From Escherichia phage vB_EcoA_fTuEco01: 44,320 nt of DNA. The stretch lies in the sequence record MZ031013.1; one strand, written 5' to 3'. Position numbers and translations under genes: made by a program. Of the stretch, positions 1 through 44,320 are shown in pieces. Position 1 is the stretch's first letter. Every line of letters begins with the position of its first letter. The notes under the pieces were generated by a model that had not been told where the DNA came from, did no database searches, and was given only the letters and a program-made list of their open reading frames with translations.

Positions 1-110
1 TCTCGCCCTCGCCCTCGCCGGATTTCCCCCATATGGGGCCGCGCTGCGGTTGGCTTGGGAATTGGGCTAGGCTGGGCCGATTTCATCGGGTAGGCTGAGG
101 GTTGCCTTGT
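1..110. repeat. Left genome end, terminal-repeat-like region: (CGCCCT)x3 at 3..19 and perfect palindrome CCCCATATGGGG at 27..38
   Basis: Direct tandem CGCCCT x3 and the palindrome are read directly from the sequence. T7 has an analogous TTCCCCCATAGGGGG-type element in its terminal repeat. The extent of the repeat cannot be set because the right end is not in the window. Confidence 0.4.
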
Positions 111-680
111 ACTAGCTTAGTGGTACACAAGGGGAACGCCTAGGAAGCGCTGGGGCACGCCTTAGTATTGGACAAGGTGATTGCCTTAGTGCAACCGCTT
201 AGGGCTTACACAGGCCGTTTTAGGGCCATTCCTGAGCGTTTGACAGGGTGGGCGGGCGTGGGCTATCTGTTCGTTTCGCTCCACTGCGTTACGCTACACT
301 CACCGCGCTTGTGTACCTTAGGTTATTCCTTGATGGATAGCTTAGGTTAGCCTTAGTGGACTACCTTAGTTAAAGCCTTAGTGCTTAGCTTAGTATCAGC
401 TTAGTAGTGTACCTTAGTCAGACTTAGTGTCTTCTCTTAGTGATTGCACATGCAAGCATGTAAGATGCCATTAGGTCGCGGTCGGTAGACCGCTAAAGAA
501 AGAGAATAGTAATAAGATGCAGTAGGAGGAACACCAGAAACCTAGCCAACCTAGCCTATCCTAGCTCTGTATCTATTGCTTTCCTTAGTCTCACATGTTA
601 GACAACCTATGTTTATCTTAGTAGTTGTGACATGTATCACATAAATAATCTATCTTAGTGAAACTTAGTGTTGACATAGG
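110..680. repeat. Array of more than 15 short (C)CTTAGT(G) repeats at irregular spacing, analogous to the heptamer arrays flanking T7 terminal repeats
   Basis: CTTAGT recurs at about 114, 165, 186, 330-440 (about 10 copies, e.g. gccttagtggactaccttagttaaagccttagtgcttagcttagtatcagcttagtagtgtaccttagtcagacttagtgtcttctcttagtg), 586, 618, 653 and 664. The same motif reappears at the right edge of the window (44049, 44138, 44268). Confidence 0.6.
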
Positions 681-34900: not shown

Positions 34901-35269
34901 GACCAAGATGAATATTTGGAAGAGAAGTTATCGCCTAAAGGGTTGGCCTTTGGTGCAATGGGTATGATGAGTACAACTGCTGTATTTAGTCTAGGTGGAG
35001 ATTTCTTAGGTGGCCTAGGTGTTCTACCTTCTGAGTTAGTACAATCCCGTTATGAGGCTGGCTTTCAGACTAAGGGTTTGATAGACCAAATACCACTAGT
35101 AGGTGTTGGTCAAGATGCATATCGTTTAGCAGATTCTATAACTAAATATGCAGAGGGTGATACAGAAGGTGTAGATGTGGCACGTAGGGCTTTACGCTTA
35201 GTGCCTCTAACTAATGTAATAGGAATCCAGAACGCATTGCGTTATGGCTTAGATGAACTGGAGGATTGA
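31961..35269 (+). CDS. Internal virion protein, largest core/ejection protein (T7 gp16-like role), 1102 aa
   Basis: GGAGGA RBS; size and position; no lytic transglycosylase motif recognised in it. Confidence 0.7.
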   Translation: MEQDIKTNWAGYVQSTPEPFSIEAAPVSAPTIRQRNELQEQVLEAKADADILGAVGAAFQNEWLAFGGKRWYDRATADFTPQPDFEIQPEQREALRFKYGTDMMQTITEGVRSEDELNFRIQNADEDLERNKRIAQAGWAGSVATIGAAVLDPVGWVASIPTGGAAKVGLVGRAVRGAIAAGVSNAAIESVLVQGDMTRDLDDIMVALGSGMAMGGVIGAVARGRATKLSEQGDDRAASVVRSADAGDRYVRAVADDSIGAMRVKGEEVLTEGAFDISSKGEDLLKTLQREGNAIDMTPRRWAGTMSALGTVVHSSQDASVRGLGARLFESPQGLGMQKASASLMQNTNLNRLKSADMNRFNDGFDLWLKENNINPVAGHTNSHYVQQYNEKVWEAVRIGMDESTPKSIRMAAEGQQAMYREALALRQRSGEAGFEKVKADDKYMPDIFDSMKARRQFGMHDKEDIIELFSRAYQNGSRKVPKEVADEIARAQVNRVVDATLTGRMSFEKAMSGQTKAEYEAIMRKAGFSDEEIEKMVEALDNKETRDNISNRAKMSLGLDVTQEYNGIRMRDFMNTNVEELTDNYMKEAAGGAALARQGFSTYQAALNAIDLVERNARNAAKDTKAHAQFEAESAKIRQSEPDYKKAQAKIEELKKRLKLKEKDEAAGLAIDEEIRQMREGLRLIMGKSIDADPQALSTKMLRRGRDITGVLRLGQMGFAQLGELANFMGEFGIAATTIALGKQFRFTSKALRSGDGFFRDKNLAEVERMVGYIGEDNWLTTKGARPDEFGDVTTVRGMMAHFDQSMNSIRRAQTNLSLFRMAQGSLERMTNRQIALSFIDHLEGKKIIPQKKLEELGLTQEFMTNLQKHYDANSKGSGLLGFDTMPYAMGETLANAIRRKSGLIIQRNFIGDEGIWMNKALGKTFAQLKSFSLVSGEKQFGRGIRHDKIGLAKKTAYGFALGSIVYAAKAYVNSIGREDQDEYLEEKLSPKGLAFGAMGMMSTTAVFSLGGDFLGGLGVLPSELVQSRYEAGFQTKGLIDQIPLVGVGQDAYRLADSITKYAEGDTEGVDVARRALRLVPLTNVIGIQNALRYGLDELED

Positions 35270-36231
35270 TGAGTTATACTTTCACAGAACATATAGCCAA
35301 CGGTACGCAAGTAACCTATCCCTTTAGATTTGCTGGCAGGGATAAAGGCTATCTTCGTGCCTCAGATGTGATAGTGGAATCTCTTCAAGGTAACACTTGG
35401 ATTGAGGTTACATCTGGCTGGCAATTAACTGGTACGCATCAAATCACTTTTGATGTAGCACCTGTTGCAGGTTTGAAGTTCCGTATTCGAAGGGAAGTAC
35501 AAAAGGAATATCCATACGCTGAGTTTGACCGTGGTGTTACCTTGGATATGAAGTCTTTAAATGGCTCTTTCATTCATATACTGGAGATTACACAGGAGTT
35601 ACTTGATGGGTTTTATCCAGAAGGATACTTCATTAAGCAGAATGTAAGCTGGGGCGGCAATAAGATTACTGACCTAGCTGATGGTGAGAATCCAAAAGAT
35701 GCAGTAAATAAATCACAGCTAGATGCTATCGACAAGAAGCATACTGATTGGAACTCTGCACAAGATATAGAGATTGCTGGTATTAAGAGAGGAATGGTGT
35801 CTGGTGTATCTCATCGCACTATTCCTTGGTATATGGTCGCCTCCGGTGGAGAGCAAATCATTCGACCACCTTACTCATTTGATGATGCTATGGTGTTTAT
35901 AAACGGTGTATTCCAGCATGAACTAGCAGGTGCAGTATCAGTGGGGTATGATGTTATAACCCTGTCCGAGCCATTACAGGCTGGGGATGAAGTTTATGTG
36001 CTTATCGGTAGTCGCTTAACCCCACCTACAAGTGCGGATACTATCCTCTTTACACAAGCAGTGAGTGAAGGTACACAATCTATCGACATTGTAACGGCTT
36101 TCCAACGTCTTGATGTATACTTGGATGGCCTGTATCAACCTAATAATGCTTATGAAATCGTAGGGTCTACTATCACTTTCAGTGAGCCATTACCTGAGTG
36201 TGTCGTAAGTATGAAGCTACAACTAGTGTAA
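35269..36231 (+). CDS. Tail-fiber-like adaptor protein (homologous to the N-terminal tail-attachment domain of T7 gp17), 320 aa
   Basis: TGATG overlap; pattern ...GGNKITDLADGENPKDAVNKSQL resembles T7 gp17 ...RIVNLANAVDDRDAVPFGQL. Too short to be a full fibre, so probably anchors the tailspikes. Confidence 0.65.
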   Translation: MSYTFTEHIANGTQVTYPFRFAGRDKGYLRASDVIVESLQGNTWIEVTSGWQLTGTHQITFDVAPVAGLKFRIRREVQKEYPYAEFDRGVTLDMKSLNGSFIHILEITQELLDGFYPEGYFIKQNVSWGGNKITDLADGENPKDAVNKSQLDAIDKKHTDWNSAQDIEIAGIKRGMVSGVSHRTIPWYMVASGGEQIIRPPYSFDDAMVFINGVFQHELAGAVSVGYDVITLSEPLQAGDEVYVLIGSRLTPPTSADTILFTQAVSEGTQSIDIVTAFQRLDVYLDGLYQPNNAYEIVGSTITFSEPLPECVVSMKLQLV

Positions 36232-36435: not shown

Positions 36436-36718
36436 ACATGCAGCTACGGAAGACGAGGTTGGCATTCTACATGGTGCTATTACCAAAATCTTTAATAAGA
36501 AAGCACAGGCAATACTGGACACTATAGAAGAAGACCCAGATGCAGCACTGCATTTAGTCTCTGGTAAAGACATTGGAGCTATGTGTAAGTGGGTTCTTGA
36601 TAATGGTATTACCGCTACACCCGCTGCACAGCAGGAGGAGTCCAAGCTATCTAAGCGCCTCAAGGCTATCCGAGAGGCATCAAGTGGCAAGATTATTCAA
36701 TTCACTAAGGAGGATTGA
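36419..36718 (+). CDS. Putative terminase small subunit, 99 aa
   Basis: GTG start 5 nt after GGAGGAGG; lies immediately upstream of, and is translationally coupled (TGATG) to, the large terminase gene. Confidence 0.45.
   Translation: MSVHNKHAATEDEVGILHGAITKIFNKKAQAILDTIEEDPDAALHLVSGKDIGAMCKWVLDNGITATPAAQQEESKLSKRLKAIREASSGKIIQFTKED
36510..36530 (+). promoter_or_regulatory. Phage RNAP promoter embedded in the putative small terminase gene
   Basis: CAATACTGGACACTATAGAAG; in frame it encodes ILDTIEE. Confidence 0.6.
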
Positions 36719-38616
36719 TGGCTAAGGCAAGAGAATCACAAGCGGAGGCTCTTGCCAGATGGGAGATGCTACAGGAGTTACAGCAGACCTTTCCTTACAC
36801 AGCGGAAGGTTTGCTTCTCTTTGCAGACACAGTTATTCATAACTTAATTGCAGGCAACCCTCATCTGATTCGTATGCAGGCTGATATCTTGAAGTTCCTA
36901 TTCTACGGACACAAGTATCGCCTCATCGAAGCGCCTCGTGGTATCGCTAAGACAACACTATCAGCAATCTATACAGTATTCCGTATCATTCATGAACCGC
37001 ATAAGCGTATCATGGTTGTATCCCAAAACGCCAAGCGAGCAGAGGAAATCGCAGGTTGGGTAGTTAAAATCTTCCGGGGCTTAGACTTTCTTGAGTTTAT
37101 GCTGCCGGATATCTACGCTGGGGACCGTGCATCCGTTAAGGCGTTTGAGATTCATTACACCCTACGTGGTAGTGATAAGTCTCCTTCTGTATCCTGTTAC
37201 TCAATCGAAGCAGGTATGCAGGGTGCTCGTGCTGATATTATTCTAGCGGATGACGTAGAGTCGATGCAGAATGCTCGTACGGCAGCGGGCCGTGCCTTGC
37301 TTGAGGAACTGACTAAGGAGTTTGAATCTATCAACCAGTTTGGGGACATCATTTACCTTGGTACACCTCAGAACGTAAACTCTATCTATAACAACCTACC
37401 TGCTCGTGGTTACTCTGTTCGTATCTGGACTGCGCGTTACCCTTCAGTAGAGCAAGAGCAATGTTATGGCGACTTCCTTGCACCTATGATTGTTCAAGAT
37501 ATGAAGGACAACCCAGCACTTCGCTCAGGGTACGGGTTGGATGGTAATAGTGGTGCACCTTGTGCCCCTGAAATGTATGATGATGAAGTCCTGATTGAGA
37601 AGGAAATCTCTCAGGGTGCTGCTAAGTTCCAGCTTCAGTTCATGCTTAACACTCGCATGATGGATGCTGACAGATACCCATTACGCCTGAACAATCTAAT
37701 CTTCACCTCGTTTGGTACAGAGGAAGTCCCTGTGATGCCTACGTGGAGTAATGATTCCATAAACATCATTGGTGATGCACCTAAGTATGGTAACAAGCCT
37801 ACGGATTTCATGTACAGACCTGTAGCTCGCCCATACGAATGGGGTGCTGTCTCCCGCAAGATTATGTATATTGACCCTGCGGGTGGTGGTAAGAACGGAG
37901 ATGAGACGGGTGTAGCCATCGTATTCCTGCACGGCACATTCATTTATGTGTATCAGTGCTTTGGTGTACCTGGCGGATACCGAGAGTCGTCCCTGAATCG
38001 CATTGTGCAGGCCGCAAAGCAGGCGGGTGTTAAAGAGGTATTCATTGAGAAGAACTTTGGTCATGGCGCGTTTGAGGCGGTAATTAAGCCGTACTTTGAA
38101 CGAGAGTGGCCTGTAACTCTGGAAGAGGATTACGCCACCGGACAGAAAGAGTTGCGTATCATTGAGACGCTGGAGCCGCTCATGGCAGCCCATAGGCTTA
38201 TCTTCAATGCAGAGATGGTGAAGTCAGACTTTGAGTCGGTACAGCACTATCCGCTTGAACTACGCATGTCCTACAGTCTTTTCAATCAAATGTCGAACAT
38301 AACGATTGAGAAGAACAGCCTCCGGCACGATGACCGCCTAGACGCCCTGTATGGCGCTATACGGCAATTAACTTCTCAGATAGACTATGACGAGGTTACA
38401 CGGATTAATCGCCTCAGAGCGCAGGAGATGCGCGATTACATCCATGCTATGAATACACCTCATCTACGCAGGGCAATGCTATATGGAGATTACGGTACTG
38501 AGCGAAGAGTGACCAACACTTCCGTAGCGATGCAGCAGCGAGTTTACGGGCAGAACTACCGAAATAAATCGGCAAGCAGAAATACACTTTCTGCAAGGAT
38601 TTCAAGGACTTATTAA
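36718..38616 (+). CDS. Terminase large subunit (T7 gene 19-like), 632 aa
   Basis: Walker A-like APRGIAKTT, a Walker B-like hydrophobic stretch followed by DD (ADIILADDVES), and a C-terminal nuclease region; AAGGAGG RBS. Confidence 0.9.
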   Translation: MAKARESQAEALARWEMLQELQQTFPYTAEGLLLFADTVIHNLIAGNPHLIRMQADILKFLFYGHKYRLIEAPRGIAKTTLSAIYTVFRIIHEPHKRIMVVSQNAKRAEEIAGWVVKIFRGLDFLEFMLPDIYAGDRASVKAFEIHYTLRGSDKSPSVSCYSIEAGMQGARADIILADDVESMQNARTAAGRALLEELTKEFESINQFGDIIYLGTPQNVNSIYNNLPARGYSVRIWTARYPSVEQEQCYGDFLAPMIVQDMKDNPALRSGYGLDGNSGAPCAPEMYDDEVLIEKEISQGAAKFQLQFMLNTRMMDADRYPLRLNNLIFTSFGTEEVPVMPTWSNDSINIIGDAPKYGNKPTDFMYRPVARPYEWGAVSRKIMYIDPAGGGKNGDETGVAIVFLHGTFIYVYQCFGVPGGYRESSLNRIVQAAKQAGVKEVFIEKNFGHGAFEAVIKPYFEREWPVTLEEDYATGQKELRIIETLEPLMAAHRLIFNAEMVKSDFESVQHYPLELRMSYSLFNQMSNITIEKNSLRHDDRLDALYGAIRQLTSQIDYDEVTRINRLRAQEMRDYIHAMNTPHLRRAMLYGDYGTERRVTNTSVAMQQRVYGQNYRNKSASRNTLSARISRTY

Positions 38617-39362: not shown

Positions 39363-40040
39363 GTGTTAGGTATTACAGGACAACGAAGTGTAAGTCATCA
39401 AGCTAAGGTTGCCACGGAAGTGGCTCCTATCGTTGATATCTCAGATGTGTCTGACGTTAACTCTTATCTAAACCAAAAGTACCTATCAGGCAAACAGGAA
39501 GGGTATACTGTTATGACTAAGAAAGGTTCACGTTATTCATTGTATGCTGCAACAGGTTCTAAGCCAGAAGATAAGTGGTTGCCTTTAGAGCAAGCAACCC
39601 TACCTGATTCGAGTGCATTAGAGCTAATTGACACCATCGATGTTGAAGTTGCAAGTGCAAGCGACACAGTAGAGGTTAATGTAACCAAAGAGAGGACTGT
39701 GTGCATCCAGACTCCTATGAAGGACTTAGCAGGTGATACAGTTTACCGGCAAGAATTGACTGCCAACATTAACCTTACCATTAATGAAAACGGAAGCCCA
39801 AGCGATACGGTTAAATTAAACATATCAATTCCTAATTTGCCAGGAACATCTAGTGGGTCTTACTATACAGTTGACAATGTGCTGTGTACTTCTTTTGGAG
39901 ACGACAGTCCTGTTATTGCCAATATAGATGTCGATAAGGCTACCACTAACTTGATTGCTGTTACACTTCGTAAAGAGACGGCAACAGATATTAGGCTGTC
40001 TCTTGTAATTAGGTGGTCAATGCCAGTGGAGGTTGTATAA
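39363..40040 (+). CDS. Hypothetical protein P3, about 225 aa, third paralogue with a C-terminal extension carrying internal DTVEVNVT / DTVKLNIS repeats
   Basis: N-terminal 90 aa align with P1/P2 (LGITGQ...KYLSGKQEGYTVM...AATGSKPEDKW). GTG start at 39363 is inferred; the track starts at an upstream TTG. Confidence 0.55.
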   Translation: MLGITGQRSVSHQAKVATEVAPIVDISDVSDVNSYLNQKYLSGKQEGYTVMTKKGSRYSLYAATGSKPEDKWLPLEQATLPDSSALELIDTIDVEVASASDTVEVNVTKERTVCIQTPMKDLAGDTVYRQELTANINLTINENGSPSDTVKLNISIPNLPGTSSGSYYTVDNVLCTSFGDDSPVIANIDVDKATTNLIAVTLRKETATDIRLSLVIRWSMPVEVV

Positions 40041-40929: not shown

Positions 40930-40968
40930 TACATAGTTTTATGTATCAGTGTCTTACGATTTACTGGA

Positions 40969-40989
40969 CACTATAGAAGAGATAAGATA
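40969..40989 (+). promoter_or_regulatory. Phage RNAP promoter upstream of the tailspike genes
   Basis: ATTTACTGGACACTATAGAAG, perfect consensus. Confidence 0.8.
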
Positions 40990-41060: not shown

Positions 41061-41396
41061 ATGACTAAGTTAACTAAACCCAAGACAACTGGCTTACTAC
41101 ATAGAGATACTGTACTAGCTACATTATTGGATAATTTACTATCTAAAAGGCGTGTTACATTTGAAGGTGTAGTTCCAAGTGAAGATACTAAAATTGAGAT
41201 AGAAGTACCTGCAACAGGAGATTTAGATTCTTCGTGGGCATCACTTGTATCATTAAGTACACCTACACTTTGTACAGCTTGGATTACTAAAGTGTCAGAT
41301 ACTAGATTAGAAGTACATGTGTTCCATACAGCACAAGTTGAAATAGACATAGATGTAGATGTTTACATTCTAGGTAAACACATTGTCAGTGCGTAA
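41061..41396 (+). CDS. 111-aa protein, candidate remnant or N-terminal adaptor-binding module of a second tailspike
   Basis: TAGGAGAG RBS before ATG 41061 (the track starts upstream at 41001). A 111-aa ORF at this position upstream of the endosialidase gene is what I recall for phage K1E, where K1-5 carries a full lyase gene. Confidence 0.5.
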   Translation: MTKLTKPKTTGLLHRDTVLATLLDNLLSKRRVTFEGVVPSEDTKIEIEVPATGDLDSSWASLVSLSTPTLCTAWITKVSDTRLEVHVFHTAQVEIDIDVDVYILGKHIVSA

Positions 41397-41463: not shown

Positions 41464-43899
41464 ATGATTCAAAGACTAGGTTCTTCATTAGTTAAATTCA
41501 AGAGTAAAATAGCAGGTGCAATCTGGCGTAACTTGGATGACAAGCTCACCGAGGTTGTATCGCTTAAAGATTTTGGAGCCAAAGGTGATGGTAAGACAAA
41601 CGACCAAGATGCAGTAAATGCAGCGATGGCTTCAGGTAAGAGAATTGACGGTGCTGGTGCTACTTACAAAGTATCATCTTTACCTGATATGGAGCGATTC
41701 TATAACACCCGCTTCGTATGGGAACGTTTAGCAGGTCAACCTCTTTACTATGTGAGTAAAGGTTTTATCAATGGTGAACTATATAAAATCACGGATAACC
41801 CTTATTACAATGCTTGGCCTCAAGACAAAGCGTTTGTATATGAGAACGTGATATATGCACCTTACATGGGTAGTGACCGTCATGGTGTTAGTCGTCTGCA
41901 TGTATCATGGGTTAAGTCTGGTGACGATGGTCAAACATGGTCTACTCCAGAGTGGTTAACTGATCTGCATCCAGATTACCCTACAGTGAACTATCATTGT
42001 ATGAGTATGGGTGTATGTCGCAACCGTCTGTTTGCCATGATTGAAACACGTACTTTAGCCAAGAACGCACTAACCAATTGTGCATTGTGGGATCGTCCTA
42101 TGTCTCGTAGTCTGCATCTTACTGGTGGTATCACTAAGGCTGCAAATCAGCGTTATGCAACAATCCATGTACCTGATCACGGATTATTCGTGGGCGATTT
42201 TGTTAACTTCTCTAATTCTGCGGTAACAGGTGTAACTGGTGATATGAAAGTTGCAACAGTTATAGATAAGGACAACTTCACGGTTCTTACAGCCAATCAG
42301 CAGACCTCTGATTTGAACAATGCTGGAAAGAATTGGCACATGGGTACTTCCTTCCATAAGTCTCCATGGCGTAAGACAGATCTTGGCCTGATACCTCGTG
42401 TTACTGAAGTTCATAGCTTTGCTACTATTGATAACAATGGCTTTGTTATGGGTTATCACCAAGGCGACGTAGCTCCACGCGAAGTTGGTCTTTTCTACTT
42501 CCCTGATGCTTTTAACAATCCATCTAATTATGTTCGTCGTCAGATACCCTCTGAGTACGAACCGGATGCGGCAGAGCCATGCATCAAGTACTATGACGGT
42601 GTGTTATACCTTATCACTCGTGGTACTCGTGGTGACAGTCTTGGAAGCTCTTTGCATCGCAGTAGAGATATAGGTCAAACTTGGGAGTCACTAAGATTTC
42701 CACATAATGTGCATCATACTACTTTACCGTTTGCTAAGGTAGGAGATGATCTTATTATGTTTGGTTCAGAACGTGCAGAAAATGAATGGGAAGCAGGTGC
42801 ACCTGATGATCGTTACAAGGCATCTTACCCCCGCACCTTCTATGCACGATTGAATGTAAACAAGTGGAGTGCAGATGACATTGAATGGGTTAACATCACA
42901 GACCAAATCTATCAGGGTGACATTGTTAACTCCAGTGTAGGTGTAGGTTCGGTGGTAGTTAAAGACAGTTACATTTACTATATCTTTGGTGGTGAAAACC
43001 ATTTCAACCCAATGACTTATGGTGACAACAAAGATAAAGACCCATTTATTGGACATGGACACCCTACTGATATATACTGCTATAAGATGCAGATTGCAAA
43101 TGACAGTCGTGTATCTCGTAAGTTTACATATGGTGCAACTCCAGGTCAGGCTATACCTACCTTCATGGGTACTGATGGTATTCGTACTATCCCTGCTCCA
43201 CTTCACTTATCAGGAGAGGTAGTTGCCGCAGATATGACTGTCGAACATCTTACCCTGAAGGCAAGTACAAGTGCTAATATTCGCTCAGAGATGCTGATGG
43301 AAGGTGAATATGGGTTCATTGGTAAGACTATACCAACGGATAACCCAACCGCACAACGTGTTATCATCTCGGGTGGAGAAGGTACAGCAGCAGATAAAGG
43401 TGCTCAGATTACCCTACATGGAGCAGGTTCTAGTACTTCTAGACGCGCAGTGTATAATGCCAATGAGCACTTGTTCCAAAGTGGGGCTATCATGCCATAC
43501 AACGATAACCTGTACCCTGCTGGCGGTCCTCATAATAGATTCACCACTATCCATCTTACAAGTGACCCTATTATTACATCGGATGCCACTCATAAGTATG
43601 GCTCACAAGGTATTGATGAGAGTGTACTAAAGGCATGGGGTAAGGTTGCCTTCAAGCAGTACAAGTTGATTGGCGAGATGTCTCGTGGTGTGCATCACAC
43701 TCACTTTGGTGTATTGGCACAAGACATTGTAGCTGCTTTTGCATCCGAAGGGTTAGATGCAATCGACTTCGGCATTGTCTCCTTCGAAGAAGGTCAGTTT
43801 GGTGTTAGATATAGTGAAATCTTAATCTTGGAGGCTGCTTATACTCGCTATCGTTTAGACAAGTTAGAGGAGATGTATGCCACTAATAAAAGCAGTTAA
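41464..43899 (+). CDS. Tailspike endo-N-acetylneuraminidase (endosialidase) with C-terminal intramolecular chaperone domain, 811 aa
   Basis: Two sialidase Asp-box motifs (SGDDGQTW and SRDIGQTW), a C-terminal region typical of self-cleaving tailspike chaperone domains, AAAGGAGG RBS, and a length of 811 aa that matches K1E/K1-5 endosialidases as I recall them. Confidence 0.8.
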   Translation: MIQRLGSSLVKFKSKIAGAIWRNLDDKLTEVVSLKDFGAKGDGKTNDQDAVNAAMASGKRIDGAGATYKVSSLPDMERFYNTRFVWERLAGQPLYYVSKGFINGELYKITDNPYYNAWPQDKAFVYENVIYAPYMGSDRHGVSRLHVSWVKSGDDGQTWSTPEWLTDLHPDYPTVNYHCMSMGVCRNRLFAMIETRTLAKNALTNCALWDRPMSRSLHLTGGITKAANQRYATIHVPDHGLFVGDFVNFSNSAVTGVTGDMKVATVIDKDNFTVLTANQQTSDLNNAGKNWHMGTSFHKSPWRKTDLGLIPRVTEVHSFATIDNNGFVMGYHQGDVAPREVGLFYFPDAFNNPSNYVRRQIPSEYEPDAAEPCIKYYDGVLYLITRGTRGDSLGSSLHRSRDIGQTWESLRFPHNVHHTTLPFAKVGDDLIMFGSERAENEWEAGAPDDRYKASYPRTFYARLNVNKWSADDIEWVNITDQIYQGDIVNSSVGVGSVVVKDSYIYYIFGGENHFNPMTYGDNKDKDPFIGHGHPTDIYCYKMQIANDSRVSRKFTYGATPGQAIPTFMGTDGIRTIPAPLHLSGEVVAADMTVEHLTLKASTSANIRSEMLMEGEYGFIGKTIPTDNPTAQRVIISGGEGTAADKGAQITLHGAGSSTSRRAVYNANEHLFQSGAIMPYNDNLYPAGGPHNRFTTIHLTSDPIITSDATHKYGSQGIDESVLKAWGKVAFKQYKLIGEMSRGVHHTHFGVLAQDIVAAFASEGLDAIDFGIVSFEEGQFGVRYSEILILEAAYTRYRLDKLEEMYATNKSS

Positions 43900-44026
43900 G
43901 CAAGCGGCTGTACGCCAGAACACAGAAGAACTTATTCAATCAGGACGTGACCATAAGCAGGCTTATGCCATTGCTAAGGATGTACAACGTCGTGCCATGA
44001 AGAAACCTTCTGCATCTTCTGCGTAA
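43877..44026 (+). CDS. Hypothetical small basic protein, 49 aa (T7 gene 19.5-like position)
   Basis: AGGAG RBS inside the 3' end of the tailspike gene; ATG at 43877 in the +1 frame; the last gene before the right-end repeats. Confidence 0.3.
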   Translation: MPLIKAVKQAAVRQNTEELIQSGRDHKQAYAIAKDVQRRAMKKPSASSA

Positions 44027-44164
44027 GCAGGTTAATATCTTAGTGTACACAAGGGCAGACCTATGATAGCTCACAGCACACCTATGAGTGCCGCTCTGGA
44101 GTCTATGACTTGTCCCCTGACTATCTAGGTTTGCTCTTAGTGTGTGTTTCAAAAGGAGGTATGT

Positions 44165-44254
44165 ATGCTGTATATAATGGCTGGTAGCTTATGGGTAATC
44201 ATGGCTTTCTTCTTTATAGCATGGTTATTAGGTTGGAGGCCAAGATGTTCATAG
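44165..44254 (+). CDS. Hypothetical hydrophobic peptide, 29 aa
   Basis: AAAAGGAGGT RBS 5 nt upstream; a single hydrophobic segment. Confidence 0.25.
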   Translation: MLYIMAGSLWVIMAFFFIAWLLGWRPRCS

Positions 44255-44320
44255 GGCGCACCTTAGTGTTGTACAAGGATTAACCAAAGTCAAAATTTTG
44301 ATATAGGCGTGTGTGAGGTG

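Follow-up and report, generated by a model that had tools for sequence, protein, structure and literature searches.

The open reading frame at 41464..43899 of the window, by which we mean the whole 44,320-base stretch of DNA analysed here, is best read as gp47, the endosialidase tailspike of a K1E-like Vectrevirus. We put the probability at about 95% that it encodes a tailspike with a self-cleaving S74 chaperone domain, mounted on the gp37 adaptor and cutting the K1 capsule. In the mechanism that we propose, the gp47 precursor (811 aa, 90 kDa) would fold as a homotrimer, with its S74 domain (aa 706-811) acting on the stalk as an intramolecular chaperone. Cutting between T705 and S706 by a Ser706/Lys711 dyad would then leave a mature subunit of 78 kDa. 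The mature trimer, built from a propeller that carries two Asp-boxes and the catalytic residues, an inserted beta-barrel and a stalk, would bind and cleave alpha-2,8-polysialic acid, allowing the virion to tunnel through the capsule of E. coli K1. Its aa 1-38 would dock on gp37, whose gp17-like N-domain would bind the tail, and a truncated gp46 occupies the site of the second tailspike gene of K1-5. Family membership by sequence, the order of the domains and the conservation of all functional residues come from the sequence itself; activity, self-cleavage, mounting on gp37 and the K1 host are predicted from homologues studied by experiment. Among our findings none contradicts this K1E-type reading, and the only oddity is a serine at position 392.

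The gp47 gene and its genomic setting

Along their whole length, the window's first 25 kb align with Vectrevirus genomes, including that of K1E, at 94-96% identity and beginning at K1E base 1, which indicates that the window is an essentially complete K1E-like genome (Autographiviridae, Molineuxvirinae, Vectrevirus). No terminal direct repeat was found in the window. The genes of its right arm run in the order internal virion protein gp36, gp37, holin, terminase subunits, gp41, gp42, endolysin, lysis genes, gp46, gp47 and ORF 48, the same order as annotated in K1E, K1-5 and KAW1A4500. As in SP6/K1E-type phages, the gp46/gp47 pair lies near the right end of the genome, behind a phage promoter-like site:

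40962..40979, + strand: phage RNA-polymerase promoter-like site TACTGGACACTATAGAAG, upstream of gp46-gp47

The core of this site, GACACTATA, is common to 12 sites on the + strand, where chance would give 0.24 pattern matches over both strands. A scan around the gp47 gene for sigma-70 promoters and intrinsic terminators returned sites no more numerous than in shuffled sequence.

The gp47 frame runs through 811 codons without a stop, and 5 nt upstream of its ATG lies a good ribosome-binding site (AAGGAGG). Its domains are laid out as follows:

41464..43899, + strand: gp47 endosialidase (endo-N-acetylneuraminidase) tailspike precursor, 811 aa, 90.2 kDa (ORF, Pfam and PDB matches)
41464..41577, + strand: N-terminal peptide, aa 1-38, a probable docking peptide for the gp37 adaptor
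41578..41769, + strand: endosialidase N-terminal extension, aa 39-102 (Pfam End_N_terminal, E=2.2e-35)
41770..43098, + strand: catalytic six-bladed beta-propeller, aa 103-545 (Pfam End_beta_propel PF12217, E=1.5e-221)
42103..42351, + strand: beta-barrel domain inserted in the propeller, aa 214-296 (Pfam End_beta_barrel PF12195, E=7.3e-46)
43099..43578, + strand: tailspike stalk, PK1A-type allele, aa 546-705 (Pfam End_tail_spike PF12219, E=6e-84)
43579..43896, + strand: intramolecular chaperone domain (Peptidase S74), aa 706-811, 11.8 kDa (Pfam PF13884; PDB 3gw6, 3gud)

All four endosialidase Pfam domains were matched, with E-values from 1e-35 to 1e-221; End_N_terminal, End_beta_propel, End_beta_barrel, End_tail_spike and Peptidase_S74 each exceed the curated Pfam cut-off, and the PF12217 match covers the whole model (positions 1-367 of 367). 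When gp47 was searched against the PDB, the catalytic fragments of the K1F endosialidase endoNF (1v0e and 3gvl) matched aa 38-705 with E=0, and the phi92 endosialidase 4hiz matched with E=8.7e-225. The family to which these phage enzymes belong is CAZy GH58.

Catalytic residues and a private serine

Two canonical sialidase Asp-boxes had been claimed for this protein in an earlier note made from the sequence, and both were located:

41917..41940, + strand: Asp-box 1, SGDDGQTW, aa 152-159 (motif scan)
42661..42684, + strand: Asp-box 2, SRDIGQTW, aa 400-407 (motif scan)

When all 44,320 bases of the window were scanned in six frames for S-x-D-x-G-x-[TS]-W, no other match came up, and the composition of gp47 itself predicts about 0.0008 such matches per 811 aa. 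Both boxes are identical in the endosialidases of K1F (at 362 and 610), K1E, K1-5 and PK1A. We aligned gp47 with K1F gp17, K1E gp47, K1-5 gp47 and the PK1A, mutPK1A2 and KAW1A4500 endosialidases. The K1F residues reported to be catalytic or critical, H350, R549, E581, R596 and R647 (PMC12632334), correspond to H140, R339, E371, R386 and R437 of gp47 and are invariant across this alignment.

Over the protein, gp47 is 99.6% identical to the KAW1A4500 endosialidase, 97.4% to that of PK1A, 89.5% to K1E endoNE and 74.8% to K1F endoNF. The four Pfam domains, the endoNF structures at E=0, the PK1A identity and the retained catalytic residues thus bear out the note's assignment of the gene to an endosialidase. 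The PK1A protein is an active polysialic-acid-cleaving enzyme that has been used experimentally (PMC5715158), and at 97.4% identity to it gp47 would be expected to cleave alpha-2,8-polysialic acid internally.

One position in the propeller stands apart:

42637..42639, + strand: Ser392 codon AGT, a private substitution; arginine (endoNF R602) in every close relative compared

Codon 392 reads AGT in the window, AGG in KAW1A4500 and AGA or CGA, again arginine, in the other four aligned relatives, so that the window differs from KAW1A4500 by a single G to T change at the third position. Ser392 lies six residues after the catalytic R386. This proximity raises the question of whether gp47 has impaired catalysis and still binds polysialic acid, in the manner of the endosialidase from mutant phage PK1A2. 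That phage is described as a polysialic-acid binder alongside a control, PK1A, whose endosialidase is catalytically active (PMC5715158). The deposited mutPK1A2 endosialidase differs from that of PK1A at just three residues (H417Y, N489D and R614G), and Ser392 occurs in no other record that we compared: of 134 phage records, 0 are identical over the 40 aa that surround it. Against such an impairment, all five catalytic residues are intact, gp47 keeps the PK1A residues H and N at 417 and 489, and the substitution is one G to T change within an otherwise intact phage genome. Moreover, the phi92 endosialidase, which is active, has an alanine at the position aligned to 392, and loss of function through R392S is unlikely for this reason. 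We consider a catalytically impaired gp47 very unlikely, and rejected an inactive, binding-only variant of the PK1A2 kind because H417Y and N489D are absent and the catalytic residues are all in place.

We found nothing on position 602, the endoNF equivalent of 392, in the K1F deep-mutational-scan preprint and its supplement. Judged from the aligned sequences, R392S is probably neutral. It seems to us improbable that R392S is something other than a neutral polymorphism or sequencing error and, together with the PK1A-type stalk, adjusts the enzyme's activity, processivity or binding, perhaps to suit a certain K1 host or O-acetylation state.

Chaperone domain and probable attachment to the virion

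Directly behind the stalk, Pfam places Peptidase_S74 ('chaperone of endosialidase') at aa 706-763 of gp47 with 35.1 bits against a cut-off of 22. Two structures match the same region: PDB 3gw6, which holds the end of the endoNF stalk and its chaperone domain, at aa 589-764 (E=4.6e-57), and PDB 3gud, the chaperone domain of the GA-1 neck appendage, at aa 706-778 (E=1.3e-10). Self-cleavage in endosialidase chaperone domains is performed by a Ser/Lys dyad (PMC3742443), and the C-terminal domain of the K1F endosialidase is cleaved off (PMC12632334). In gp47, S706 and K711 align with S911 and K916 of endoNF (Ser, four residues, Lys), and the crystallised mature endoNF chains in 1v0e and 3gvl terminate at the residue aligned to T705. 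These chain ends, together with the dyad description in PMC3742443, place the predicted cut:

43576..43581, + strand: predicted autocleavage site Thr705 / Ser706 (endoNF chain ends; dyad alignment)

The released domain would therefore comprise aa 706-811, that is 106 aa. The resemblance of the C-terminus to an intramolecular chaperone, as previously suggested, holds up by the S74 match, the dyad and 3gw6, but the length of roughly 120 aa given for it does not. With this processing, a precursor calculated at 90.2 kDa would yield a mature subunit of 78.4 kDa and a fragment of 11.8 kDa. By analogy with its experimentally studied homologues, gp47 is expected to cleave itself once the trimer has folded.

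At the N-terminus, gp47 gives no Pfam match to Phage_T7_tail at E<=0.1, whereas the 1064-aa gp17 of K1F carries this domain at aa 10-115, followed by Tail_spike_N. The protein is thus without a T7 gp17-like N-terminal domain, as the note had stated. It does not have the fused tail-binding domain of the T7/K1F type, and its aa 1-38 have no counterpart in endoNF residues 2-224. The separate adaptor invoked in its place was found where it had been put, in the right arm, followed nearer to gp47 by a second small gene:

35269..36231, + strand: gp37 tail adaptor with a T7 gp17-like N-terminal domain (Pfam, K1E gp37 identity, PDB 7y22_e)
41061..41396, + strand: gp46, a truncated 111-aa remnant at the position of a second tailspike gene (96.4% identical to K1E gp46)

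Counted from the ATG annotated in its relatives, gp37 is 320 aa long and matches Phage_T7_tail (PF03906) at aa 4-154 with 27.6 bits against a cut-off of 25.2. Its sequence agrees with K1E gp37 at 99.1% identity and with K1-5 gp37 at 74%, and it matches PDB 7y22_e, the 'tail adaptor protein' of Kp7, with E=1e-83. Its gene follows that of an internal virion protein, the placement found in SP6/K1E-type phages (Vectrevirus/Zindervirus).

According to the summary in PMC6966330 of the cryo-EM work (Leiman 2007), gp47 of K1E and K1-5 sits on the gp37 adaptor. The first 102 residues of the gp47 described here are 100% identical to those of K1E and K1-5 gp47. The endoNF crystal constructs start at residues aligned to aa 38-39, so that aa 1-38 are absent there, and the tail fiber of Klebsiella phage Kp7 (7y5s) has an N-terminus that aa 2-47 resemble (E=4.6e-6). 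The Kp7 resemblance and the K1E/K1-5 identity fit a conserved docking peptide at the N-terminus of gp47, and aa 1-38 probably dock onto gp37.

This docking role is one that we infer, which leaves some room for gp47 to be a free soluble depolymerase or to attach to the tail directly. Both arrangements are, in our view, extremely unlikely: the N-terminus is identical to that of K1E and K1-5 gp47, which is mounted on gp37, the gp37 of this phage is nearly that of K1E (99%), gp47 itself has no tail-binding domain, and a homologous pair of adaptor and tail fiber has been solved for phage Kp7. By homology, then, gp47 is likely to be mounted on gp37.

The neighbouring gp46 has no Pfam domain that we could find, and over its first 45 aa it shares 37% identity with the N-terminus of K1-5 gp46, a K5 lyase. 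The K1E counterpart is a small, truncated protein with no apparent enzymatic activity, and it is reported to be connected to the virion via the same gp37 adaptor (PMC6966330).

Stalk allele, likely host and comparison with known phages

At the nucleotide level, the gp47 gene is 99.3% identical to that of vB_EcoP_KAW1A4500 (MK373773), 95-98% identical to those of K1 phages including PK1A/mutPK1A2 and vB_EcoP_B, C, D, K and R, and 88% identical to those of K1E, K1-5 and AAPEc6. This identity is unevenly distributed along the gene. Nucleotides 1-1650 are 90-100% identical to all relatives compared, and nucleotides 1651-2400, which encode the stalk and chaperone domain, are 58-81% identical to K1E and K1-5 as against 92-99% to PK1A. 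From this pattern, gp47 carries a PK1A-type stalk and chaperone allele; the stalk itself is 96% identical to that of PK1A and 71% to that of K1E. Compared with K1E and K1-5, the gene thus reads as a mosaic in which a PK1A-type stalk and chaperone allele is joined to a propeller shared with K1E, and the different stalk allele suggests recombination near aa 550-580.

Phages whose genes are 88-99% identical have recorded hosts such as E. coli O18ac:K1:H7, K1 strain EH954 and K1 LU_100. A host with a polysialic acid capsule had been predicted for this phage, and E. coli K1 is indeed its likely host because relatives this close were isolated on E. coli K1 strains. A divergent stalk might, however, shift the substrate to another sialic acid polymer or to an O-acetylated form, in which case the host would not be a standard K1 strain. 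The stalk and chaperone region is just 71-73% identical to K1E and K1-5, and Ala643 of gp47 takes the place of endoNF S848, which we take to be a residue of the sialic-acid site in the stalk. We regard such a shift as highly improbable nonetheless, because a 96% identical stalk allele is found in PK1A, a K1 phage with an active endosialidase (PMC5715158), because phages isolated on O18ac:K1:H7 have the same allele (95.7-95.8% at the nucleotide level), and because identity in the active-site propeller is 94-98% among all the K1 phages compared.

The main value of assigning gp47 to the K1E-type endosialidases lies in correct annotation, which identifies a K1-capsule-specific Vectrevirus and predicts its receptor. 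This bears on phage therapy and enzyme treatment against the E. coli that cause neonatal meningitis and urinary-tract infection. Biochemistry, crystallography and cryo-EM have made the endosialidase family, the self-cleaving chaperone domain and the mounting on gp37 familiar since the 1990s and 2000s. For this phage group, the enzyme, the chaperone domain and the adaptor arrangement of gp47 are accordingly ordinary and raise no new biological question. The minor new points are the private R392S and the combination of a PK1A-type stalk and chaperone allele with a propeller shared with K1E.

Among the known systems, the closest is KAW1A4500, whose endosialidase (QBQ76762.1) is likewise 811 aa long and differs from gp47 at three positions (N248S, S392R and Q672K). 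The two phages share the order gp37, lysis and terminase genes, gp46 remnant, gp47 and small ORF 48, although identity between their genomes is no more than about 95.5% over the window's first 25 kb. The PK1A endosialidase (EF507428, ABP02011.1) is 97.4% identical over all 811 aa, with 96% in the stalk and 98% in the chaperone domain, and none of its 21 substitutions relative to gp47 falls on a mapped catalytic or dyad residue. K1E endoNE and K1-5 gp47 share length and domain order with gp47 and, if mounting here follows its homologues, the adaptor-mounted arrangement as well; their propellers are 97-98% identical to that of gp47, but their stalk and chaperone domain only 71-73%. K1-5 differs further in that its gp46 is a full-length K5 lyase, whereas gp46 in the window is a remnant. 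The fourth enzyme compared is K1F endoNF (gp17; PDB 1V0E, 3GVL, 3JU4 and 3GW6). Its propeller is 93.7% identical to that of gp47 but its chaperone domain only 32%, and the Asp-boxes, the catalytic residues and the Ser/Lys dyad are identical in the two proteins. At 1064 aa, endoNF carries fused gp17-like tail-binding and Tail_spike_N domains, in place of which gp47 has a putative docking peptide of 38 aa.

Mosaic structure of the endosialidase gene

The endosialidase gene (gp47, 41464..43899 on the + strand) is a mosaic whose divergent part, at window positions 43114..43863 (gene nt 1651-2400, counted from 41464; aa ~551-800), covers most of the stalk and the C-terminal chaperone domain. Across the first 1650 nt, identity is 90-100% to K1E, K1-5 and PK1A alike. 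In the stalk and chaperone region, by contrast, nucleotide identity to K1E and K1-5 is only 58-81%, whereas PK1A remains at 92-99%. Because identity falls after nt 1650 for K1E and K1-5 and not for PK1A, the alignments suggest that the stalk/chaperone module was swapped by recombination.

Within the propeller, six residues past the catalytic arginine R386, the enzyme carries a private Arg to Ser substitution at residue 392 (window 42637..42639; codon AGT, where KAW1A4500 has AGG) that is absent from all 134 phage records searched. Because the phi92 endosialidase has an alanine aligned to this position, the substitution is probably neutral.

Promoter-like sites and genome ends

Twelve sites between window positions 2858 and 40976, every one on the + strand, have in common the core GACACTATA (mostly TACTGGACACTATAG), for which chance predicts 0.24 matches on both strands. 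They constitute the predicted promoters for the phage RNA polymerase, a set typical of SP6/K1E-like phages.

Comparison of positions 1..600 with 43421..44320 found no terminal direct repeat between the window ends. For KAW1A4500, 266-bp terminal repeats have been reported (PMC6563267), and the window probably contains a single copy of the repeat.

Gene content compared with related phages

Three features bear on the comparison with relatives:

39363..40040 (ORF listed from 39333), additional gene of 678 nt between gp42 and the endolysin gene
43877..44026, ORF of 49 codons, in a different frame from the endosialidase gene, whose final 23 nt it overlaps
36718..38616, intact large terminase gene (about 632 aa)

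Over its N-terminal ~70 aa, the additional gene's product is a paralogue of gp41 and gp42 and has the motif 'SGKQ.G' in common with them (blastp, 1e-8 to gp42 and 6e-4 to gp41; gp41 against gp42, 5e-13). K1E and K1-5 lack this gene; its counterpart by position and length (678 nt) is KAW1A4500_00051, which was reported in KAW1A4500 and mutPK1A2 only (PMC6563267). Positional counterparts of the small ORF are '48' of K1-5 and KAW1A4500_00057. The large terminase gene is likewise intact in K1-5 and KAW1A4500, whereas that of K1E is interrupted by the homing endonuclease gene 40.5 and thereby split into 40A and 40B.
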